Sequence record: MN850592.1
DNA: 42,379 nucleotides
DNA from: Escherichia phage aldrigsur
Strand: one strand, 5' to 3'
Part shown: in pieces, positions 2,687-31,809 of the stretch
How positions within the stretch are numbered: the stretch's first letter is position 1
Layout: every line of letters begins with the position of its first letter
Notes under the pieces: generated by a model
Database searches by the model: none
Seen by the model: the letters and a program-made list of their open reading frames with translations, nothing else
What the model was told of the DNA's origin: nothing
Translations under genes and position numbers: made by a program

Positions 2687-5131
2687 TTAAATTCTCCGAA
2701 CTTTGTTGTAGAACTTGATGTAGTAGCCAAGCCCCTGAATGTTCAGGTCGCCTGCCGTAGACGAATCCACGACCATGCTGCTGGACTCCACCTCAAGACC
2801 CATGCGAACCTTCAAGTGCGCACGCTTGGCCAACATCGCAGACCCCAGACCCAGCTCTTTACTGGTATACCGGATAGGGCTGCTGATGATGTTCAGTGCC
2901 GAGTACGCGCCCCGGTCGCTGGCCGTGATGTTGAACAGGCTCGTGTACCGCAACGTGAAGTTGTAGTGCATGATGACCATCTTGTTCACGTCCATGTACG
3001 AGCCGTCCTGATTGAACACACGCGGAGGCGTAGGGCTGAACAGGGCAGTGAATCGCAGGCCCACATACAGTGAGCTGCTGCCGTACGAAGGCTGGAGGTA
3101 CACGCGTCGGTTAGTGGTGTCGATGGACTTAACCCCGACCTCAGCCCCGATGTAGTTGCCAGACGGCACTACGTTCGTCATGAAATCCCAGTTGCCCTCA
3201 GTCTGGTAGCGGTACTGAATAATGTCCCACAGCGCCCTCTGCTCGCCAGTGGCAGCGAACTGAATGTACGAGCTGTCCGTGGCCGGGTTCGTCACAGTCA
3301 TCAACTGGGCGTAGTCAATGGCCGGGAGGAATCGCGCCGGGTCAGTCGGGTCAGGGGAGTCTCGCATGGACAGCGTGAGCAGGTTCATGTGGCCCTGTTG
3401 CTCAACCAAGAGCACCAGAACCTCACGGACGAACCACGCAGCCTGCACAGTCCCGTACACCTCCCAGCGATGCCACGAGGACAGAACCTTCTCGTCACCA
3501 GACCACAGGTACTCGTTCACGTAGAGCGTGGACTTCTCAGTGGTTGAGCCAAACACGACGATGTTGTTCGTGGTGCTGGCAGAGATATACGAGTTGGCCC
3601 CTTCCAGATAGGTCGGCAGGTGGTCGGTTACATCCTGACTCACGTACTGCAAATCCGTGTAGCCGGACGGCAGCATCTCCTTGATGGAGAATGAGCTGTT
3701 CGAGCGCGGGTACGCGTAATACAGGCTGCGGCCAGAGGTGGTCGGTGCTACGCCAGTGTCCATCTGGTACGTCGAGGTCAACACAGCAGTGGCGTTGTTC
3801 GGCGTAAGGATTTGGTTACGTCCGGGGATAACGGCTTGGTGTTCCTCACTGGCCAGAATCAGGTCAGAGTTGAACGGGATGCCATACCGGAACGATGCCC
3901 CGGCGAAGCTGGTTGCGGTGAACTCAATGCGGTCGTCGTCCAGTACCTGCGTCACAGTCGTACGGAAGAAGTTGGTTCTGTCTTCCTTGTTGCTGGAACC
4001 CATGGTAATGTACGGGCCGGAGAACACAATCAGGCGACCTTGGAACGAAGCCAGACCAGTGATACCCACACCATCAGCATCAGTGAATGCCGGGATTGAG
4101 TTGGTCTTGTCGTCGCCAGCCAGTCGGCCCGGCCATGAGCCTTGAGCGAACGTGTGCTGGTTGGTGGTCGAGGTCGTGCTGAATACCAGAGGCATAGTGC
4201 TTGGGTTAATCCCGGTCGGGGAACCCCACGCACCTTTCTCCACCCAGCGCGAGTTGGCGTAATCCCACTGGAAATACTGAGCGAAGCTGTCGTCGCCCAC
4301 GGTCATGATGAAGCCACCAGCCTGAGTCGGCAGACGCGCCGGGAGCTTGGTGGTCAGGTCGACGCGGTGAGTGTTCGACGCAATCGCATAGCTGGAACCA
4401 GTGTTGGTGGAGACGTTCAGGTCAGTGTACGCGGCAGTGGTCTGGAGGTACATGTACGCACCATCCACCTGCACAACCTCCAGCCCGGTAGCGCCGCCAA
4501 TGGCAGCGTCGAGCTGAGACTTCAACTGACCGATGATATATTCCGGCGTAGCCTTACCCGAAGCGCCTGTCTCGTCGGAGTTAGGTGTGGTGTAAGAGGC
4601 TGACACAGCGCCGCCGCTTGTTTCAACGCGAACGGTGTACTGCTTACCGTAGCCTCCGGCCAGCACAAAGTAGTAACCCCGGCGACCCGGATTCATACGC
4701 GTCTCGTTCTCCAGAAGCACGGGCAGCTTGGAGCAGTTGGCAACGTACATGGTGTTGCCTACGGTAGCGAACACGATGTCGTCGGGGTTGTTCGTGACGA
4801 GGTACGAGGACTGGCCCATGAACTGGACAGTCTCCGTCTCGACGATGGCGGTGACATACCCGGTCTTCGTATTCACGATGAACGTGGTGATGCCCCAGCC
4901 TAAGTTAGTGGTAGTGAATCGCAGGTGGCCGAAGTTACCAAGGCTCCAGACGTTCGCGTTAGTGGAATCCACAGTACGGTGCAGTCGGGTGCCGGGGCGT
5001 TTACGCAGGCCACGCACGGTGTCAGAGGTCATGTTGACCTGTTCCTCAACCTGCGATAGCTGGCGGTCAGTATAGACCTGCTGGCTCACGCCGCCGAGGA
5101 TGGATTTATAAGCGCCTTGGTATACTGGCAT
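2687..5131 (-). CDS. Tail tubular protein B (T7 gp12-like), 814 aa
   Basis: Size and position match T7 gp12 (~794 aa); start overlaps upstream stop (TAATG) with GGAGAGGA Shine-Dalgarno. Confidence 0.8.
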   Translation of the reverse strand: MPVYQGAYKSILGGVSQQVYTDRQLSQVEEQVNMTSDTVRGLRKRPGTRLHRTVDSTNANVWSLGNFGHLRFTTTNLGWGITTFIVNTKTGYVTAIVETETVQFMGQSSYLVTNNPDDIVFATVGNTMYVANCSKLPVLLENETRMNPGRRGYYFVLAGGYGKQYTVRVETSGGAVSASYTTPNSDETGASGKATPEYIIGQLKSQLDAAIGGATGLEVVQVDGAYMYLQTTAAYTDLNVSTNTGSSYAIASNTHRVDLTTKLPARLPTQAGGFIMTVGDDSFAQYFQWDYANSRWVEKGAWGSPTGINPSTMPLVFSTTSTTNQHTFAQGSWPGRLAGDDKTNSIPAFTDADGVGITGLASFQGRLIVFSGPYITMGSSNKEDRTNFFRTTVTQVLDDDRIEFTATSFAGASFRYGIPFNSDLILASEEHQAVIPGRNQILTPNNATAVLTSTYQMDTGVAPTTSGRSLYYAYPRSNSSFSIKEMLPSGYTDLQYVSQDVTDHLPTYLEGANSYISASTTNNIVVFGSTTEKSTLYVNEYLWSGDEKVLSSWHRWEVYGTVQAAWFVREVLVLLVEQQGHMNLLTLSMRDSPDPTDPARFLPAIDYAQLMTVTNPATDSSYIQFAATGEQRALWDIIQYRYQTEGNWDFMTNVVPSGNYIGAEVGVKSIDTTNRRVYLQPSYGSSSLYVGLRFTALFSPTPPRVFNQDGSYMDVNKMVIMHYNFTLRYTSLFNITASDRGAYSALNIISSPIRYTSKELGLGSAMLAKRAHLKVRMGLEVESSSMVVDSSTAGDLNIQGLGYYIKFYNKVRRI

Positions 5132-5679: not shown

Positions 5680-5702
5680 AAAACCTCCCAGTGATAATCA
5701 TA

Positions 5703-5725
5703 GAAGCCCCTCAGAGAAGGGCTTC
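5703..5725 (-). terminator. Stem-loop 10 nt downstream of the major capsid gene stop (7-bp GC-rich stem, 9-nt loop); candidate terminator or RNA-stabilising hairpin
   Basis: Inverted repeat GAAGCCC / GGGCTTC seen directly; same relative position as T7 T-phi after gene 10; no clean U tract. Confidence 0.3.
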
Positions 5726-5735
5726 GAGTTTACCA

Positions 5736-6728
5736 TTAGGACTCAGTGGTAACTACAGCAACCACGTCTGGACGACGCTGACCCACGGTGTACATGTGGA
5801 AGCTATCCAGAACGTTGGTCAGTTCACGTTCGTCATCCCATACGCGGTTGAACAGCGGCTGGGCTTCGACAGTGACCAGAGCCAGAGACGGGTCGAAGAT
5901 AATCATCTTGCGCTGAATCTCGTCGGCGGTGACGTTGAAGTCAGGGCCGAGGATGTGGTCGGTGATTGCCGCCTGCGGGAACGCGTTGCTCTCGATGATA
6001 CGGATACCGTTGACGTACGCAACACGACGCATTGCGAAGTCGTTGACACCACGACCACCAGTGAACTCAACGTTCATCAGTTTCTTGTGCTCCAGCAGAA
6101 TGCTGAACCACGCCGGGTCAATCAGCGTAACCAGTCGGCCAAGGTCGGCATCGCGACGGATGAACGCCTCGATAGCTTTCTTGTGGCCGTGTACCAGCGC
6201 AGACGCATCATCTTCCTCAGATGCCACGGTGCCAGTCAGAGTGACCTGCTCCTTGATACCTGCATTGAACGCGCCAGCCAGAGAAGCCGGAGGCACGAAG
6301 TCGGCAGACTTCTGGAGCTGGATGACGTGCGCTTGGTCGAACGCCTTCGCCTGTGCAGTACCCATGTTACGGGTCAGCTCAGCGCGGAAGTCCGGCGCAG
6401 TCCAGTCGTCCTGATAGTCAATCGGGATACGGATGTAAGACACGGTATCCACAGTGACAATCAGTTTCTCAGAGCGAACTGGCTGGTTGTCCAGCGCCTC
6501 GCCAGAGCGACGACCCTTAACGGTCACAGAGCCGAGACGGTCGCCACGCCAAGTGTTGGACTGGTTAGCCACAGACTTGAAGTTGGTCAGACCGGAACGG
6601 AAGATGGAGTTGTAGATGAACTGGGTTTGAACATCACGGTCATACACCTCAAGGTGAATGTCGTTATCAGAGTTCGCGCCACCCCAGTGTGGACGGAACT
6701 GATTCGGGGTATAAGCGTTATCAGCCAT
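5736..6728 (-). CDS. Major capsid protein, 330 aa
   Basis: Size and position between scaffold and tail tubular genes; long intact ORF. Confidence 0.85.
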   Translation of the reverse strand: MADNAYTPNQFRPHWGGANSDNDIHLEVYDRDVQTQFIYNSIFRSGLTNFKSVANQSNTWRGDRLGSVTVKGRRSGEALDNQPVRSEKLIVTVDTVSYIRIPIDYQDDWTAPDFRAELTRNMGTAQAKAFDQAHVIQLQKSADFVPPASLAGAFNAGIKEQVTLTGTVASEEDDASALVHGHKKAIEAFIRRDADLGRLVTLIDPAWFSILLEHKKLMNVEFTGGRGVNDFAMRRVAYVNGIRIIESNAFPQAAITDHILGPDFNVTADEIQRKMIIFDPSLALVTVEAQPLFNRVWDDERELTNVLDSFHMYTVGQRRPDVVAVVTTES

Positions 6729-10490: not shown

Positions 10491-10526
10491 GGTAGCGTGA
10501 TACATATCACTATAGACACTTTCATA
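10491..10526 (-). promoter_or_regulatory. Composite conserved element (19-bp box TATGAAAGTGTCTATAGTG followed by palindrome TGATAcaTATCA) in the RNAP-downstream intergenic region; candidate phage promoter/operator
   Basis: Near-identical composite found in inverted orientation at 31190..31226; 19-bp box also at 24533..24551 and 10219..10237. Confidence 0.35.
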
Positions 10527-24532: not shown

Positions 24533-24551
24533 CAATATAGACACCTTCATA
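24533..24551 (-). promoter_or_regulatory. Copy of 19-bp conserved box (TATGAAGGTGTCTATATTG), 20 nt upstream of the 24513 start; candidate promoter
   Basis: 17/19 match to boxes at 10508..10526 and 31190..31208; preceded by hairpin 24552..24576. Confidence 0.3.
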
Positions 24552-24576
24552 ATGCCTGCTAAATAATAACAGGCAT
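24552..24576 (-). terminator. Stem-loop (7-bp stem ATGCCTG/CAGGCAT, 11-nt AT-rich loop) in intergenic gap
   Basis: Inverted repeat seen directly; lies between stop at 24587 and next start at 24513. Confidence 0.3.
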
Positions 24577-24586
24577 GAGTAGATGA

Positions 24587-24757
24587 CTACGCCGGAATAA
24601 CATTACGCACTATGCGTTGCAGGTCTTCGAGTTTACTCTCGGCTTCCCACTTTGTATCACGCACAGCCAAAGGTTTATTCGGCTGGAGTTTATTAACAAC
24701 CCACCAGAATAATCCGGTGGGTGATTTGACTACGGCCAGCTTAGTGTCGCGTTGCAT
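24587..24757 (-). CDS. Hypothetical protein, ~56 aa
   Basis: ATG at 24757 with GGAG SD (ORF track 24587..24778 from GTG). Confidence 0.35.
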   Translation of the reverse strand: MQRDTKLAVVKSPTGLFWWVVNKLQPNKPLAVRDTKWEAESKLEDLQRIVRNVIPA

Positions 24758-25253: not shown

Positions 25254-25549
25254 TTGTTATCCTCTTTCAGAATACGGACGGTGAACTCGTCATCTTCGTA
25301 CGCCTGCCACTCACGCTCAGGCCCATGCCCTAACTTGGTTACGACCAGTCGGCTGCCGTCATACTCCACGGCACCGATGCGCTGGATGTAACCGCCGTAT
25401 GCTACCACGTAGTCACCCAGCTTAAGCTCCTGCGTTTTCTTCTCGACGTACTTGAACGGCGAGTCGTCATGCACAGGGGCTGGCGGTGCGCCAAAGGCAT
25501 CGACCAACCAACGCTGTAGCTTGGCTACGTTATCTTTCCACTTGCTCAT
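25250..25549 (-). CDS. Hypothetical protein, ~99 aa
   Basis: ATG at 25549 with GAGAGGTG SD (ORF track 25250..25576). Confidence 0.45.
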   Translation of the reverse strand: MSKWKDNVAKLQRWLVDAFGAPPAPVHDDSPFKYVEKKTQELKLGDYVVAYGGYIQRIGAVEYDGSRLVVTKLGHGPEREWQAYEDDEFTVRILKEDNK

Positions 25550-25551
25550 AC

Positions 25552-25836
25552 TCACACCTCTCGTTGTTCCAGCCATACCTGCGCGGCTGCATACGCATCT
25601 TCATAACTTACGAAGCCGTCGAACTCGTCGCCGTTCGGTGCGAGGAAGCACCAGTCGAGGTGTTCATGTGGGTTGCCCCGCGAGAATATCACGCAAGGAA
25701 ATACGCCGCCGACTGAATGCCCACGCAGACCGCCGTTGCCAGCACAGTGACCGAGCGTTGCGGCTACCCCACGCAGATGCTCAGCTTCACGGATTGCGCC
25801 AGCCTGTTCGATAATACTTTCAGATGCCAGTACCAT
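25552..25836 (-). CDS. Hypothetical His/Cys-containing protein, ~94 aa
   Basis: ATG at 25836 with AGGGGG SD; ORF track lists longer 25552..26070 version. Confidence 0.45.
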   Translation of the reverse strand: MVLASESIIEQAGAIREAEHLRGVAATLGHCAGNGGLRGHSVGGVFPCVIFSRGNPHEHLDWCFLAPNGDEFDGFVSYEDAYAAAQVWLEQREV

Positions 25837-25838
25837 AG

Positions 25839-25991
25839 TTACCCCCTGATTAAATAGTATTCGTGGTGCATGTAGTGACCGCCGAGATACACCGCCCGGC
25901 TCATTAGGTTCGGGTTGCTCGCCCCACCCAGTGCGCAGTACCCTGCGTAACTTATCTGGTTGGCGTGCGCATTGTATGTGCTGCCACTCAT
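25839..25991 (-). CDS. Hypothetical protein, ~50 aa
   Basis: ATG at 25991 with GAGGTG SD. Confidence 0.3.
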   Translation of the reverse strand: MSGSTYNAHANQISYAGYCALGGASNPNLMSRAVYLGGHYMHHEYYLIRG

Positions 25992-26047
25992 GTTCACCTC
26001 TCTCGTTTGATAATGACACAGCCCCCGCAAGCAGAGGCTGTAGCTTA

Positions 26048-26281
26048 TCACTCGACCAGCTCGAAGCCATCGCCCAGTGTTGTCACCACGTTCTCACCGA
26101 TGTCATCCACCAACCACAGCTCGTCATGCAGGCAGACTTCCAAGCCGTCCGGGTCAACCTCACCCGGCTCAGGGCGACGGGCATCGTACACCTTGTCCAC
26201 TGTCAGGTCACGGGCCACAAACTTACCATGATGGGAGGTGTGCTTCCCGGTGTACAGAACCTTCACATTCGCAGCCATCAC
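26048..26281 (-). CDS. Small acidic protein, paralog family 2 (copy c), 77 aa
   Basis: Shares V(R/A)D..VYDA..GE(L/V)DP.G.E..VDD pattern with 26526..26771. Confidence 0.5.
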   Translation of the reverse strand: MMAANVKVLYTGKHTSHHGKFVARDLTVDKVYDARRPEPGEVDPDGLEVCLHDELWLVDDIGENVVTTLGDGFELVE

Positions 26282-26523
26282 AGCACCTCAAACCAGTCGT
26301 TGTAATCAGAGACAAAGAAGTCACACGGATGACCGCTCTCGTCCAGTACAGCTACAGTCTCGTAGCCTGCCACGTCATCAGCACCCTTGCCGTACACTGC
26401 GGCCAGCTTAGGGAACGCCTTGACCAGATTCTCACCCTCAGCAACCAGCACTGCCGGGTACTCATTGCCCACGGTGAACCCGGTGCGGCGCTTGACTACC
26501 TTCAAAGTTACTTTCTTACCCAT
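26278..26523 (-). CDS. Small acidic protein, paralog family 2 (copy b), 81 aa
   Basis: MGKKVTLKVV N-terminus parallels MSKKVRIEII of copy a; ATG at 26523. Confidence 0.5.
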   Translation of the reverse strand: MGKKVTLKVVKRRTGFTVGNEYPAVLVAEGENLVKAFPKLAAVYGKGADDVAGYETVAVLDESGHPCDFFVSDYNDWFEVL

Positions 26524-26525
26524 GA

Positions 26526-26771
26526 TTATTCCCCCAGTTCTTTGATGGTGATGTCTTTGTGGGCTGACACGAACGCCAGACATTCATCGCCTTCATCATC
26601 AACGAAGGAGTAGCCCGGCTCGTCCAGCTCATAGCCTACCGGGTCAAGCTCACCAGCTTCCAACAGCTCAGCGTCATACACCTGCCCAATGGTGGTGTCA
26701 CGCACAGCGCCAGAGAACCAGTGCGGCTGGGATACGTGGCCGATGATTTCAATGCGTACTTTCTTGCTCAT
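26526..26771 (-). CDS. Small acidic protein, paralog family 2 (copy a), 81 aa
   Basis: Tandem with copies b and c, same size class. Confidence 0.5.
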   Translation of the reverse strand: MSKKVRIEIIGHVSQPHWFSGAVRDTTIGQVYDAELLEAGELDPVGYELDEPGYSFVDDEGDECLAFVSAHKDITIKELGE

Positions 26772-26773
26772 GA

Positions 26774-27109
26774 TTATTCCTCGTTGTCAATACCAAACAG
26801 ATACATCTCACCCTCGTAGATGGGAGTGAGAATCTTGAGCCACGTCTGGATAGCCAGCGGCGCGGCACTGTAATGCAGCTCGTTCAGCAGGTCGATGATG
26901 AATGGCCTGCGCCCGGCGTACGCCTTGAAGCGTTCGATGATTTGCTCGTCGCTCGCCTCACTCGTCAGCATCTGCTGCCCTAAGATTTCAATCTGGTCAA
27001 TGACGACCAGCCCTTCCTGACCATCGGGCAGGCGGTACAACAGTACCGCCACGTCTTGCCCATCCGTAATGTCAGGCCCACGGAATACCTTGACCGGATG
27101 CAACGCCAT
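26774..27109 (-). CDS. Hypothetical protein, 111 aa
   Basis: Intact ORF, tightly coupled. Confidence 0.45.
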   Translation of the reverse strand: MALHPVKVFRGPDITDGQDVAVLLYRLPDGQEGLVVIDQIEILGQQMLTSEASDEQIIERFKAYAGRRPFIIDLLNELHYSAAPLAIQTWLKILTPIYEGEMYLFGIDNEE

Positions 27110-27111
27110 GC

Positions 27112-27396
27112 TTAGACCTCGAAGCTACCGACTTCTTCGTAGCCCTTGGCAGGCATGTCAACCGCAGCAGTAGCGTTCAGCGAACCACCGTGCAGCAGGA
27201 AGGCCAGCTCACCCATGCGTTCGATGTCAGCTTGCAGCGACGGCAGCGCAGCCACAGCATCATCAACCGTGTTCAGCTTCGGCACTTCCTTACAGCCGGA
27301 AATGCAGAGTGCGAAGTTGCCTTCTTCGAAGCCGTCACCAACAACAGCCACGATGTCTTTCTCTTGTGCGGAGTAGTATGCAGTTACTTTAGCCAT
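27112..27396 (-). CDS. Small acidic protein, paralog family 1, ~94 aa
   Basis: ATG at 27396 preceded by conserved upstream module (hairpin, GGCAATCATGCC box, CTGAGGG SD). Confidence 0.5.
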   Translation of the reverse strand: MAKVTAYYSAQEKDIVAVVGDGFEEGNFALCISGCKEVPKLNTVDDAVAALPSLQADIERMGELAFLLHGGSLNATAAVDMPAKGYEEVGSFEV

Positions 27397-27464
27397 GGTA
27401 AAACCCTCAGTTAGTTGTGGCATGATTGCCCTACAGCCCACCGCTATGGATGGGCTGACAGAAA

Positions 27465-27701
27465 TCACGCAGTCTTGATGACTTCGCCTTCATCCAGTGC
27501 GGCCTGCACTGCGTCGGCGTACTCACCACCGGACAGCAGCACGTAGCTCACGCTGTCAAAGTGCAGTTCCTCACCGAACTGTTCGAAAGCAAAGGTCTTG
27601 CTGGTGTACACTGCCACCTGCTGGCGGTCGTCAGCGAATTGCGCATAGGTTACTTCACCATCGTTCGGGTCAGTGAAGCGTACCAGTTCAAACTTAGCCA
27701 T
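27465..27701 (-). CDS. Small acidic protein, 78 aa
   Basis: ATG with AGGAG SD. Confidence 0.5.
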   Translation of the reverse strand: MAKFELVRFTDPNDGEVTYAQFADDRQQVAVYTSKTFAFEQFGEELHFDSVSYVLLSGGEYADAVQAALDEGEVIKTA

Positions 27702-27737
27702 GTTGTTTCTCCTGTTACTGGTGGGTTAGTGGTCGGC

Positions 27738-28013
27738 TTACTCGAAGTCAGCCGCGTCTACGTTGTCAGCTTCAAAGCTGGTGATGAAGCGAGGCTCCAG
27801 TGCATTCAGCTTTTCAACCGACAGCTTGCCACCCTGAATGGCAATCAGCATACCGCCGAGGTCTTCCAGCGCCTCGCGCACCTCGCCAATCACCTCGTCA
27901 TGGCTTGCGTCTGGCTTCGGCTGCACACCCAGTGAAGGTGCATTGTCAACAGTCTCGCCAACGATGAAAGCCAGACCGCCGTTGTTCAGGGAAAACACAT
28001 TGATAGTGGACAT
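27738..28013 (-). CDS. Small acidic protein, paralog family 1, 91 aa
   Basis: Conserved upstream module; C-terminus ...DAADFE. Confidence 0.5.
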   Translation of the reverse strand: MSTINVFSLNNGGLAFIVGETVDNAPSLGVQPKPDASHDEVIGEVREALEDLGGMLIAIQGGKLSVEKLNALEPRFITSFEADNVDAADFE

Positions 28014-28078
28014 AATAAATCCTCAGTAGATTGGGGCATGATTGCCGCACTGCCCCGTCGCAACGAGGCAGTAAGGTA

Positions 28079-28420
28079 TCACGCAGAGAAGTCTACGTCA
28101 TCTTCATCGCCGTACACTTTCAGCTCGGTGACAGACACGTCTGCACCCAGCTTCTCACGGTCGATGAAAGGCACGCCGTTCATCATGCCGAACAGTTCCA
28201 GCGGCAGGCCAGAAGCTGCGAACCCAGCGAAGCCTTCGTCAGCGTCGAAGTGCGCCACGATGTCCTCGGCAGAGTCGCCGTCGCGGTTGCGGCCTGCAAT
28301 CAGGTAGCCCTCGTCGTCGGAGGTGAATGCCACCCACTCAGCGGTACGCGCTTCTTCCGGTACGTCTGCGCCGAATGCGGAAGCTGCGATGTTGGTCAGG
28401 ATTACAAGTTTGATGCTCAT
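28079..28420 (-). CDS. Small acidic protein, paralog family 1, 113 aa
   Basis: Conserved upstream module; segment SAEDIVAHFDADEGFAGFA resembles SAQEKDIVAVVGDGFEEGNFA of the 27112..27396 product. Confidence 0.5.
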   Translation of the reverse strand: MSIKLVILTNIAASAFGADVPEEARTAEWVAFTSDDEGYLIAGRNRDGDSAEDIVAHFDADEGFAGFAASGLPLELFGMMNGVPFIDREKLGADVSVTELKVYGDEDDVDFSA

Positions 28421-28491
28421 ATTAAAACCCTCAGATTGAGTAAGGCATTATTGCCACGCTGCACCCTCGCAAGGATGCAGCAGGACAACGC

Positions 28492-28773
28492 TTACTCGTC
28501 GTCTACTTCTGCTTCGAACGTGCCGATTTCTTCAATCGTAAGGTCGTCGCCGTGGCGCAGTCGCAGGTCGTCTTCGTCCTGCTCAGCGAGCATGATGATG
28601 AACTCGTGCGGCAGCGGGATACCCTGCAACGTTTCGAGGATGGCTACGGCCTCAGTCGGCTCGCCTTCTTCACGGACGTGGTGCAGGTACTGGCCTTCGT
28701 TCAGGGAAACAGCGAAGCCATACAGTTCGCCAGCTTTCTTGGTCACGAATGCAGTTACAGTTTTGATAGTCAT
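28492..28773 (-). CDS. Small acidic protein, paralog family 1, ~93 aa
   Basis: ATG at 28773 with GGAG SD and conserved upstream module; ORF-track 178-aa version rejected as N-terminal over-extension. Confidence 0.5.
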   Translation of the reverse strand: MTIKTVTAFVTKKAGELYGFAVSLNEGQYLHHVREEGEPTEAVAILETLQGIPLPHEFIIMLAEQDEDDLRLRHGDDLTIEEIGTFEAEVDDE

Positions 28774-28849
28774 GGTTAATACTCCGAATAGGTTGGGGCA
28801 GAATTGCCATAAAGCCAGCGCCTTGACACTGGCTTGAGTCAATCCCGGC

Positions 28850-29128
28850 TTACGCCACTTCGAAGTCTTCCTGACGACCCCAGCGAACGGTGCCATCCCA
28901 TTCGGTGCCTTGGTCTTCATCGACCAGCCACAGGAAGTCGCCGGACTCGTCCAGAATGTCACGGCTCTGAGCAAAGTGCGGCAGGTTCTCCGCGCCTTCC
29001 TTGATGTCGATGCGGCCAGTGTCGTCAATGGTCGCTACGATGGTGCCAGTAAGCTGGCCGCCCATCAGTGCTGCCGGGAAAGAGTGCGCCAGCGGTTTGG
29101 TGCGAGTGTCTACAGCTTTAAAAGTCAT
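28850..29128 (-). CDS. Small acidic protein, probable paralog family 1, 92 aa
   Basis: MTFKAV start and acidic C-terminus ...EDFEVA; preceded by hairpin 29164..29186. Confidence 0.45.
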   Translation of the reverse strand: MTFKAVDTRTKPLAHSFPAALMGGQLTGTIVATIDDTGRIDIKEGAENLPHFAQSRDILDESGDFLWLVDEDQGTEWDGTVRWGRQEDFEVA

Positions 29129-29193
29129 GCTATGCCCCTTTGGGTTGGTGTGTGGTTACAATTCAGGCCACTCAGTGAATGGCCTGTCAGTAA

Positions 29194-29724
29194 TCACGCA
29201 GCTTGCTTAGCCTTGCGCAGTGCATCCAGCACGTTCTGAGGAACAACAACCTTGTTCGCGTCTTCGTCCTTCCCTTCGTGGCGCAGTTCGTTCGCCTTGT
29301 TCAGCGCCTTCTCAGCTTTGGCAATCAGCTTTTCGAGCGCATCTTGCAGGTCGAAGCCTTCGAACGCCTGCTCAGGTTTCAGGCTCCACCACATAGTGGC
29401 TTTGGCCGTGTCAATGTTCGCCTTAATGTACTCAGCGCCCTGCCAGCCGATAAAGCCCTGTTTCCCGCCGTTCTCACCGATAATCAGGCCGCCGAACTTG
29501 ACGAACCAGTCTACCAGCGCCTTACCACGGATACCCTGACCGAGCTGATTCACGAAGGATTCAGCACGAGTGTAGTCGCCGTGATGGTAAGCGTGCAGGA
29601 TGATGCCGACCGCAACGTTCTGAATGTCGCTACGGAGTGAGTGCGCCTTCTTGACGGTAGACTCAATGGCCTTGTCCAGAGCGGCAGCGTCTTTGAAGCT
29701 GGTGTATTTGATTGCAGTTGTCAT
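29194..29724 (-). CDS. Hypothetical early protein, ~176 aa
   Basis: ATG at 29724 with AAGGGG SD (ORF track starts at GTG 29757). Confidence 0.5.
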   Translation of the reverse strand: MTTAIKYTSFKDAAALDKAIESTVKKAHSLRSDIQNVAVGIILHAYHHGDYTRAESFVNQLGQGIRGKALVDWFVKFGGLIIGENGGKQGFIGWQGAEYIKANIDTAKATMWWSLKPEQAFEGFDLQDALEKLIAKAEKALNKANELRHEGKDEDANKVVVPQNVLDALRKAKQAA

Positions 29725-29785
29725 GGTAGTACCCCTTGTCAGGTTGGTTGATTTCACATAGCGCCTCGCAAGACGCTATAGGCTA

Positions 29786-29860
29786 TCAGCCACGGCGACG
29801 GCTCAGTCGCTGGTCAATGACCCAGCAGGCCGCCGCTACTACACACAGTGCGGTAAACAT
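29786..29860 (-). CDS. Very small hydrophobic peptide (24 aa, MFTALCVVAAACWVIDQRLSRRRG)
   Basis: ATG 1 nt after upstream stop (TAACATG), GGAGG 5 nt upstream; below ORF-track size cutoff. Confidence 0.3.
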   Translation of the reverse strand: MFTALCVVAAACWVIDQRLSRRRG

Positions 29861-29861
29861 G

Positions 29862-30254
29862 TTACGCCTCCACTACCCAAAATTGTTCACCATCGTAAGT
29901 CCAAGCGGTGTGCTGCCCGGCTTCCATTTCGGCCTCTGTCTTGCTGACGAACTTGCCAGCAGGCTTGCCCGGATATGGTGAATCCATGAAGATTGCATCA
30001 TCATCTTTGGTCACTACCATGATGCAGTCCTGTTCGAATGCTTTACAGAACAGCTTAACAGCCTGCCTGATTTCGTAGATTCCATCGACAGGAAAGACCA
30101 TGCTTAACTCGTACGCATTGTCGAACTTGCCTGTCAGTGTGACCGGAACCACTCCGAACATATCCTGCACCGTTCGCAGTGCCTTGCAATGAAGCGCCAG
30201 ATTAACACATTCAGCGTTGCCCTGACGATATGCGCTTGCATAGATACGGTACAT
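29862..30254 (-). CDS. First early gene, hypothetical protein, 130 aa
   Basis: First ORF downstream of the tandem promoters; GGAGA SD. Confidence 0.55.
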   Translation of the reverse strand: MYRIYASAYRQGNAECVNLALHCKALRTVQDMFGVVPVTLTGKFDNAYELSMVFPVDGIYEIRQAVKLFCKAFEQDCIMVVTKDDDAIFMDSPYPGKPAGKFVSKTEAEMEAGQHTAWTYDGEQFWVVEA

Positions 30255-30711
30255 AGTTATTTCTCCAGTTGTTGGCTATTTTCAGGTGGATAGTGAACCC
30301 ATTGTGACGCGCCGTACATGTTGCACTAAGTGGCATTGATTGGCTTGTCGGATTCACTACCCTGAAAAATCGCCCCGCCCATTTCGCGCCGTGGATATTG
30401 TCTGCATCCACTCTCAGGAGTCCTCCAGCAGTCCGGCTCACCGTTACCAGCTTGCCTACCTACCCGCTTCACTCCGCGCCTTATAAGACGTTTGGGATTT
30501 TACTGATACTGCGCTGTGTCTATCGCGCTTCTCCGTTCCCTTGCATCAGGCACTACCCCTACGGCGTTAGCATTGTTGCGATACCGTTGCTTTTCAGCGA
30601 TGCCTCTCACCAGTTCCTAGCTGCGCCGGATACCCATGAGACCGTGACACTACGTGGCCAGTTTACGTTCACTCAGAGCAGGTTGTTTTGCAACCTTTCA
30701 ACTCGGTGCTG

Positions 30712-30740
30712 ATTACATCACATCGTATTCAGCGTGTCAA
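30712..30740 (-). promoter_or_regulatory. Sigma70-type early promoter A (TTGACA-17-TGTAAT)
   Basis: Minus strand: -35 TTGACA at 30740..30735, 17-nt spacer, -10 TGTAAT at 30717..30712. Confidence 0.55.
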
Positions 30741-30791
30741 CTACTTTTTACTTCTGACTGACTGGCTTGCTGCCCTGTCAATCTGGTGTGC

Positions 30792-30820
30792 ATTACAGCA
30801 TACTCATTTCATCCTGTCAA
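30792..30820 (-). promoter_or_regulatory. Sigma70-type early promoter B (TTGACA-17-TGTAAT)
   Basis: -35 at 30820..30815, -10 at 30797..30792; shares TATGCTGTAATGC context with promoter C. Confidence 0.55.
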
Positions 30821-30928
30821 CCGATTTAATCAGCGCCCGTTCTGAGATAATTAAACCGTACCAGTTCGCCTACGTGTGTTTTAACGTCTTTATCAATGAC
30901 TGTTTAGCTTGCTGGCTGACGTGGAAGC

Positions 30929-30957
30929 ATTACAGCATAGTGAGCTTGCCTTGTCAA
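30929..30957 (-). promoter_or_regulatory. Sigma70-type early promoter C (TTGACA-17-TGTAAT)
   Basis: -35 at 30957..30952, -10 at 30934..30929. Confidence 0.55.
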
Positions 30958-31034
30958 CACACCAGATTGTTAAAGAGCAGTGTTACCGTCCTACACCGTC
31001 CAACACGTTGACGCTGTGTTGTCCGGCGAGATGA

Positions 31035-31063
31035 ATTACAGCAAATAGCGAATACCTTTGCAA
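31035..31063 (-). promoter_or_regulatory. Sigma70-type early promoter D (TTGCAA-17-TGTAAT)
   Basis: -35 TTGCAA at 31063..31058, -10 at 31040..31035; weaker -35. Confidence 0.4.
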
Positions 31064-31189
31064 GTATTATTTTCAAGAAATGTGATAAGTGTATGTAATC
31101 ATTAGGATTAAAGTTTGATTAGATAATCATAACACTGGATAGAATACCGTTATCAGATAGGTTATAAGTTACTGTAATCATTAGATAAT

Positions 31190-31226
31190 TATGAAAGTGT
31201 CTATAGTGATATAGTATCGCTAGATA
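31190..31226 (+). promoter_or_regulatory. Inverted copy of the composite element (TATGAAAGTGTCTATAGTG + TGATAtagTATC palindrome) at the boundary of the AT-rich and T-depleted regions
   Basis: Same composite as minus-strand 10491..10526, here on plus strand. Confidence 0.35.
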
Positions 31227-31230
31227 CGCA

Positions 31231-31620
31231 GAGCGAGCGCGGCGCAGCCGAAACAAGCGAGCGCCGAACGGATGACGGATGGCAGACCGTAGGACTGACA
31301 GACGGCAGACAGTGAAGGCAGTAGGACAGTAACAGCAGGTAGCAGAGCATGACGCGCAGAGCTGGCAGGCGCAGACAGTAGACCAGCACACCACACAGCA
31401 CCACGCCGCACACCGCTACACACCAGCACCACGAAAAGAGACAGATACCCGCACGACCACGCGCAGCACACAGCACCACACAGCCAGCGCAGAGCGTCCC
31501 CAATAGGACAGCACCACACCGCCACCGATAGCCCACACAGCAGGCACACAGCCAGCCAGCAGGACAGCACCACGCGGCGAGTGATGAAACGCGACACGCA
31601 CGAGCTATACCGCACGCAGG
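31231..31620. repeat. Strand-asymmetric block (plus strand ~5% T) with degenerate short repeats (ACAGCACCAC x4, GACAG-type); candidate terminal-repeat/packaging region
   Basis: Composition counted directly; lies between last late gene (stop 31810) and early promoters, where genome ends of T7-like phages map. Confidence 0.4.
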
Positions 31621-31809
31621 CAATCCTCTTGACGCGCCGCGCAACGCACGCGAGACAATATCGCGCACGTCGCGAGGCTAATCCGCGCACACGTCATGGG
31701 GGTACGCGCGGTCATTTGGGTCGAGGGAGGGGCAACCATAAACATGCAATTTTCAAGCCGGGGGTATTGCTCCACACGGCCTGTTCAATGCTCCAGCTTT
31801 CGATAGCCC

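Follow-up and report, generated by a model that had tools for sequence, protein, structure and literature searches.

The early region of Escherichia phage aldrigsur (sequence record MN850592.1, whose 42,379 nucleotides are the window analyzed here) carries a block of small acidic genes, several of them separated by a repeated hairpin module, and from the sequences of this phage and its relatives we consider it quite likely that these modules are T7-type RNase III processing signals. A preliminary description of positions 27112-29193 had seen a tandem array of five paralogous genes (A to E), four of them standing behind a hairpin, a mini-palindrome and a CCAA(C/T)CTA box, and had proposed a coordinated post-transcriptional module. 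That proposal was right in kind, since an RNA-level, post-transcriptional element common to several early genes is probably what the modules are, but the element would be a classical one, with the anatomy, the position and part of the sequence of the T7-type RNase III sites, rather than a new regulatory module. The genes and sites concerned are the following (aa, amino acids; pI, isoelectric point; ORF, open reading frame; MFE, minimum free energy; bp, base pairs):

29741-29793, minus strand: hairpin upstream of the 176-aa gene, 10-bp upper stem, UGCG loop, no box
29194-29724, minus strand: 176-aa gene, phrog_1448
29142-29205, minus strand: site RA, upstream of gene A, no box; fold z = -2.9
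28850-29128, minus strand: gene A, 92 aa, pI 4.3, orphan, N-terminus MTFKAV; present in only 3 of the 12 genomes compared
28790-28854, minus strand: site RB, box at 28797-28808
28492-28773, minus strand: gene B, 93 aa, pI 4.3, orphan, N-terminus MTIKTV
28437-28499, minus strand: site RC, 11-bp upper stem, UGCG loop, box at 28444-28455; MFE -34.3 kcal/mol, z = -4.0
28079-28420, minus strand: gene C, 113 aa, pI 4.05, orphan with a disordered acidic tail, N-terminus MSIKLV
28028-28090, minus strand: site RD, 11-bp upper stem, UGCG loop, box at 28035-28046; MFE -30.3 kcal/mol, z = -4.1
27738-28013, minus strand: gene D, 91 aa, pI 4.1, D/E family, N-terminus MSTINV
27465-27701, minus strand: 78-aa acidic ORF between D and E, pI 4.1, kept in 10 genomes
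27412-27476, minus strand: site RE, 9-bp upper stem, box at 27419-27430; z = -3.3
27112-27396, minus strand: gene E, 94 aa, pI 4.25, distant paralogue of D, N-terminus MAKVTA

The box that marks four of these sites, GGCAATNNTGCC or GGCAAT(NN)TGCC, occurs exactly four times in the 42 kb, always on the minus strand, which also carries every gene of the genome; shuffled sequences contain 0.19 matches, and none of 100 contains as many as four. A stable hairpin stands upstream of every copy. On both points the preliminary description was accurate, coordinates included. Box and hairpins are kept in 11 related phages of the same genus, Bonnellvirus, giving 40 instances from 12 genomes in which the box is invariant.

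The hairpin that had been noticed is the upper stem of an irregular hairpin of about 55 nucleotides (nt) with a lower stem beneath it, the composite comprising ~20-26 bp broken by small loops. The box had been taken for a separate mini-palindrome; it is instead the 3' strand of that lower stem, its 3' half (AUNNUGC) pairing with GCGUGAU around the upstream stop codon or, at site RB, with GGGAUUG. At RC the lower stem is formed by GAGUAAGCGUUGU and AUAAUGCCUUACUC, at RD by GCGUGAU/AUCAUGC plus CC/GG and at RE by GCGUGAUUUCU/GGG-AAUCAUGC; RB is laid out as GGGAUUGACUCAAG, a 7-bp stem with a 6-nt loop, and CUUUAU^GGCAAUUCUGCC (the caret marks the cut, a predicted one in this phage). The module is intercistronic and, since its 5' strand and the upstream gene's stop codon overlap, is not a property of the downstream gene alone. 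GCGUGAU makes up the 5' strand of the lower stem, and for this reason three upstream genes, the 176-aa gene, gene C and the 78-aa ORF, have Ala(GCG)-UGA as their last codons. From the end of the box to the AUG there are 22-26 nt in each module. The CCAA(C/T)CTA box is exact in two of the four modules, but across phages it is a loose C/A-rich spacer. Gene A and the 176-aa gene have hairpins of the same class upstream, without the box; the 78-aa ORF is preceded by a C/A-rich leader only, unstructured in folding and with neither hairpin nor box.

Covariation supports the composite structure. The 40 box modules comprise 18 distinct sequences, and when these are aligned 93% of cells are paired over the whole structure, vs. 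35-54% after a shift of the 3' partner by one to three columns. The upper stem reaches 99.4%, with two-sided changes at 7 of its 9 pairs among the 18 variants. For the lower stem the figure is 85%, one pair being compensatory; three type-C rows misaligned by 2 nt cause most of the failures. Both variable positions of the box have partners in the upstream strand: covariation is seen at pair 11-55 (UA in 10 rows, GC in 5), and at pair 12-54 one side alone changes (GC in 10, GU in 4). Individual sites add compensatory changes between phages, in the outer helix of site C (GAGUAAG/CUUACUC vs. GAAUAAG/CUUAUUC), at RD in BHUENT7, HHU8 and J8-65, and at RE in LF82-23, which carries two changes from A-U to U-A. 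The GGCA/UGCC mini-palindrome never varies, so covariation is uninformative about it.

In T7, RNase III cuts the host-made early precursor at five intercistronic sites (PMC4858673), and its single-strand cuts leave 3' hairpins that serve as stability determinants (PMC3867540). The sites described here have in common with the T7/T3 signals that they are intercistronic and lie on the sense strand of the host-transcribed early operon of a T7-superfamily coliphage; that they are irregular ~55-nt hairpins with a lower stem, a small internal loop and a 9-11-bp upper stem; and that 25-35 nt of leader separate them from a Shine-Dalgarno sequence (ACUAACUGGAG-like, as after T7 R1). The T7 site positions follow Dunn & Studier (1983) and were checked by folding only; the features returned for the T7 records do not list RNase III sites. 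In every fold the cut comes after CCUUUAU, in support of the positions used. Folded in this way, R0.3, R0.5, R1, R1.1, R1.3, R4.7 and R18.5 all run lower stem, ACUCAAGG, upper stem, CCUUUAU^GA, lower stem, the same anatomy as that of our modules.

The likeness to the mapped T7 sites extends to the letters themselves. Site RB reads GACUCAAG(stem)CUUUAU^GG and is nearly equal to T7 R0.5 and R1.1; set against R0.5, GAUUGACUCAAG-(stem)-CUUUAU GGCAAUUC stands beside GAUAGACUCAAGG-(stem)-CCUUUAU GAUUAUC, and the flanks of RB are nearly identical to those of R0.5, R1.1 and R18.5, with ACUCAAG...CUUUAU^G common to them. Site RA (ACAGGCCAU...UGGCCUGAAU) resembles T7 R1 (ACAGGUCAU...GUGGCCUGAAU), the likeness running over ACAGGcCAU...GGCCUGAAU.

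A covariance model built from the seven T7 sites only (model R1) was searched against the whole window with filters off. Besides RA, RB and RE it matched three further places:

26008-26050, minus strand: RNase III-like hairpin after the last small acidic ORF; fold -25.1 kcal/mol
24535-24594, minus strand: RNase III-like site, intergenic
5686-5743, minus strand: RNase III-like site directly after the presumed major capsid gene (5736-6728), with flanks ACUCGAAG...CUUCUAUGAUUAUCAC

These six are its best matches in the window, all on the sense strand and all intergenic. The strongest in the genome is 5686-5743 (34.5 bits, E = 7e-6), followed by 24535-24594 (E = 4e-4), RA (27.0 bits, E = 5e-4, at 29147-29204), RB (23.0 bits, E = 6e-3, at 28795-28853, a full-length alignment), RE (18.3 bits, E = 0.09, at 27417-27475) and 26008-26050 (17.4 bits, E = 0.16). 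Flanks of the type (A)CUCAAGG...CCUUUAU^GA are found in RB, 5686-5743 and 24535-24594, and RA has an R1-like variant of them; they are absent from RC, RD and RE. In ten related early regions 34 of the 35 matches to this model (E ≤ 1) lie on the sense strand, the best reaching 45 bits. The reciprocal model (R2), built from the Bonnellvirus modules, ranked R18.5 first and R0.5 second in the 40-kb genome of T7, with a partial match to R1.1 in ninth place (E = 6.1). In the window it additionally finds RA (E = 0.0025), 26016-26040 within the hairpin that follows the last small acidic ORF (E = 0.013), and the hairpin before the 176-aa gene (13.5 bits, E = 0.058), which is a weak member of the RNase III-like class.

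Several observations weigh against reading the modules as RNase III signals. The lower stem is mostly invariant in sequence, with a single pair changing on both sides, and so offers a weak covariation test; in each of two variants, J8-65 site B and the RZ4-type site C (AA to AC), one lower-stem pair is broken. RC and RD are not among the window matches of the T7-based model at E ≤ 10, and these two would belong to the class through the shared box and architecture only. The first two T7 matches of the reciprocal model are non-significant (E = 0.35 and 1.1). Cleavage itself is here a prediction, and RNase III processing leaves the invariance of the full palindromic GGCA..UGCC unexplained, since T7 lower stems vary freely. 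Sequence and layout also depart from T7 in other respects: at four sites the 3' lower strand consists of the invariant 12-nt palindromic box, in contrast to the T7 lower stem, which differs from site to site; RC, RD and RE, which have no CUCAAG/CUUUAU loop sequences, are more continuous helices of ~20-26 bp; and the sites are much denser, six in 2.4 kb, or nearly one per ~300-nt gene.

Three features lie further upstream:

30712-30957, minus strand: three tandem sigma-70-type early promoters, TTGACA-N17-TGTAAT (3 exact matches vs. 0.00 by chance, all on the minus strand)
30255-30705, minus strand: untranslated leader of 451 nt between the early promoters and the SAMase gene
29862-30254, minus strand: SAMase gene (anti-restriction)

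In the course of events that we propose, host RNA polymerase would start at the three tandem promoters and make one long early mRNA spanning the SAMase gene, the 176-aa gene and about ten small acidic ORFs; to judge from their sequence, the TTGACA-N17-TGTAAT trio would be the promoters of a polycistronic early transcript that includes all of the modules. Between several of the cistrons the ~55-nt hairpin would fold, its lower stem being GCGUGAU/AUNNUGC and its upper stem, 7-11 bp long and often closed by a UGCG loop, being set off by a small internal loop or bulge. Host RNase III would then cut on the 3' side, directly before GGCAAU, a position that is taken from the T7 analogy and the model alignments. 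The upstream mRNA would keep a protective 3' hairpin, and the downstream mRNA would gain a short, C/A-rich, unstructured leader before its Shine-Dalgarno sequence; cleavage at this point, and any effects of it on mRNA stability and translation, are what the comparison with T7 would lead one to expect.

What this does not account for is the box, which is the same in 40 of 40 instances although the lower stem needs only part of it. After the predicted cut it would form the 5'-terminal 12 nt of four early mRNAs, and its invariance might reflect a protective 5' structure, a handle for a protein, or homogenization by recombination. We also entertain, tentatively, a processing-triggered switch: half of the box would be locked in the lower stem until the cut, whereupon it would refold into a 5' hairpin that shields the 5'-monophosphate from RNase E or serves as a handle for a regulator, and the modules may at the same time be crossover points for cassettes.

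The invariance of the box could also be explained if GGCAAU(NN)UGCC were an operator, an RNA mini-hairpin or a DNA palindrome through which a protein coordinately represses or activates the four downstream genes, on the model of the T4 RegA or coat-protein operators, with the neighboring hairpin incidental or merely stabilizing. Such an operator would be compatible with RNase III processing, but we regard it as unlikely. All 12 positions counted as specified or flanking in the box stay the same in the 40 instances from 12 phages, which exceeds the need of a lower stem; the 4-bp hairpin GGCA/UGCC (-3.5 kcal/mol) persists in folds of the processed leaders; and the box always ends 22-26 nt before an AUG. 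Yet this mini-hairpin is without covariation support, since nothing in it varies, and the two positions that do vary fit pairing with the upstream strand rather than an internal hairpin, one of the pairs covarying on both sides. Moreover, none of the early proteins was recognized as a candidate RNA-binding regulator, and gene A, the 176-aa gene and the 78-aa ORF are without the box though they lie in the same block.

Less probable again is that the modules are DNA-level recombination cassettes, similar to the promoter-early stem-loop (PeSL) elements of T4-type phages, that serve the loss, gain and reordering of small early genes through homologous recombination between the short repeats. The early regions of the relatives do break at the modules: six phages lack gene A, their junction extending exactly from RA (about 29196) to RB (28855); in mellemsur a crossover between RA and RE, overlapping by 30 nt, has removed gene A, the 78-aa ORF and all that lay between them and has left a hybrid hairpin; J8-65, in which the gene order differs, has an A-type hairpin fused to the box before gene C; and glasur, forsur and ROV85 carry a second D-family gene behind an E-type site. 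Other breaks, however, fall inside coding sequence (a deletion of C in forsur, a truncation of D in usur, and a fusion of the 176-aa gene with D in ROV85), and the compensatory changes, the strict bias to the sense strand and the similarity to T7 sites point to selection on RNA. For these reasons recombination at the repeats looks like a by-product and not like the function of the modules. The fusion in ROV85, a Pantoea phage, is an in-frame chimera (sense coordinates 4295-4825 of the reverse complement) that joins the first ~100 residues of the 176-aa protein to D-family residues 20-93 (85% identical to glasur D), with the genes between the fused parts deleted.

The PeSL cassettes of T4-type phages, and the stable intercistronic T4 hairpins with UNCG loops, may be compared with the modules. 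As in T4, repeated short intergenic modules flank small, fast-evolving, early orphan genes; indel junctions lie inside the modules here, and three of the hairpins have UGCG tetraloops. Unlike the T4 elements, the modules contain no promoter, and both their sequence and the phage lineage are different.

That the modules act in transcription, whether as intrinsic terminators, as attenuators or as phage RNA polymerase promoters, is hardly credible: they are G+C-rich hairpins between genes, but no U-tract follows any of them, sigma-70 and terminator scans found nothing at the modules, the phage-promoter-like motif GAARGTGTCTATAKTG differs from the box and is absent from the modules, and the box does not occur in the middle and late regions. 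A sigma-54 reading of GGCA..TGC was set aside by eye, the spacing being too short. Rfam, searched at permissive thresholds over 25500-31800, returned two chance-level matches only and no matching family.

Taken as RNase III signals, the modules would extend RNase III maturation of early mRNA beyond T7 and T3 to a phiKMV-like lineage of enterobacterial phages and would add about nine candidates to the small set of natural single-hairpin RNase III substrates; they should be annotated as neither promoters nor terminators, and expression of the early genes of these phages would then probably depend on the host rnc gene. Literature searches, full text included, returned no report of RNase III sites in Bonnellvirus or phiKMV-like phages, and the description of the genus does not mention RNase III (PMC7552041), so that, as far as we found, such sites in this lineage are apparently undescribed before now. 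Only the invariant box and the link to cassette indels go beyond textbook knowledge; both bear on how processing sites shape mRNA stability and the plasticity of early regions.

The genes that the modules separate fit the preliminary description less well than the modules do. All five acidic ORFs are indeed where they had been placed, on the minus strand, with pI values of 4.05-4.32 and with the Phe-containing C-terminal tails that had been quoted. They are not consecutive, the 78-aa ORF interrupting D and E, and the paralogy and internal similarity claimed for the array as a whole were not borne out: an all-against-all BLASTP gives E > 0.5 for every pair, and only D and E are significantly related when family profiles from the 12 genomes are compared (hhalign probability 68%, P = 4.7e-5 over 61 columns, in a colinear, full-length alignment). 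All other pairs have P of at least 0.0096; that lowest value belongs to B and E and fails correction for 21 tests. Neither A nor C has an hhalign profile match among the families compared, and the comparisons of A, B, C and the 78-aa, 111-aa and 81-aa-type families yielded nothing besides D-E. On this profile evidence D and E are homologous, the only demonstrable relationship among A-E, and the genes separated by the modules appear to be mostly unrelated, acidic, orphan early proteins.

An exhaustive HMMER search with a combined D+E profile recovered about ten additional small relatives, intermediates among them. Four matches to long repeat proteins were taken as compositional; the two that were read (P0030 and P0035) are low-complexity repeats. 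The D/E family recurs in the early regions of related phages. The second D-family gene of glasur, forsur and ROV85 is 46-47% identical to the first copy, and its place at the E position shows that the slot behind one site can hold either branch of the D/E family.

AlphaFold2 predicts D with confidence (predicted local distance difference test, pLDDT, 91.8; predicted template modeling score, pTM, 0.83), the D/E fold being a three-stranded sheet, then three helices, then a closing strand; it has no close match in the PDB. Gene C (pLDDT 80.5) may share this fold; its hhalign probability against D/E is 0.2%. Neither the D nor the C model found an informative match in fold searches, the structural neighbors of D being only uncharacterized early proteins of Lidtsur, LIMElight and usur. 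Pfam and PHROGs returned nothing for A-D, and E matches only phrog_32287, a family without known function. Homologue searches found 7 clusters for D, 6 for E and 12 for C, all Bonnellvirus-like: A-E are all orphans confined to the genus, none of them matching a protein of known function.

The preliminary description had thought of DNA mimics. Like the T7-type mimics (Ocr/gp0.3 and gp5.9), A-E are small, strongly acidic, early and encoded beside an anti-restriction gene (SAMase); unlike them, they have no sequence, profile or fold similarity to any characterized protein. Neither homology or fold similarity to a known mimic nor an elongated, acidic-patterned surface of the Ocr kind was seen in A-E, and our analyses speak neither for nor against mimicry.

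Acidity, in any case, is not peculiar to A-E. Ten small ORFs, from 28850 down to 26048, follow the 176-aa gene, and all ten have pI values of 4.05-4.96 (genome median 5.4). The aromatic-acidic C-terminal motif is likewise wider than the five proteins in which it had been noticed: F or W followed by D or E occurs within the last ten residues of 7 of the 10 proteins of the block (26048-29128; for example DFEVA, SFEV, WFEVL and GFELVE) vs. 1 of the 37 others (Fisher p = 1.4e-5, for a pattern chosen post hoc). In D and E it lies partly within the last beta-strand.

Three consecutive ORFs of ~80 aa at the far end of the block form, from their sequences, the one clear tandem set of paralogues in the region:

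26526-26771, minus strand: first ~80-aa ORF
26278-26523, minus strand: second ~80-aa ORF
26048-26281, minus strand: third ~80-aa ORF

Over 66 aa the first shares 39% identity with the third (E = 3e-7), and a weaker alignment is obtained for the one in the middle. Translational coupling of the three is suggested by their stop and start codons, which abut or overlap by a short stretch.

The genome is complete and is that of an E. coli phage of the T7 superfamily, belonging to Bonnellvirus (Autographiviridae), a genus of which one paper describes nine members (PMC7552041). Identity over this region is 98% with Escherichia phage altidsur and 80-90% with other Bonnellviruses. The gene order is phiKMV-like, which sets it apart from T7, with the RNA polymerase gene far downstream. 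The 451-nt leader between the early promoters and the SAMase gene (fold z = -3.3, 0 of 100 shuffles being equally stable) has no Rfam match and sits in a stretch that is 87-90% identical across the genus.

The motif GAARGTGTCTATAKTG, which resembles SP6/K11-like promoters for phage RNA polymerases, is present without mismatch at three places:

10508-10523, minus strand: phage-RNA-polymerase promoter-like motif
24533-24548, minus strand: phage-RNA-polymerase promoter-like motif
31193-31208, plus strand: phage-RNA-polymerase promoter-like motif

The copy at 24533 overlaps the RNase III-like hairpin at 24535-24594, an arrangement that may be compared with that of several T7 sites adjoining phage promoters. 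The copy near the genome end (31193-31208) is antisense to all genes, leftward. Close to it, at 31250-31650, the sense strand is nearly free of A (plus-strand AT skew up to +0.82) and composed of short repeats rich in G, T and C; this genome-end region is probably part of the terminal repeat.

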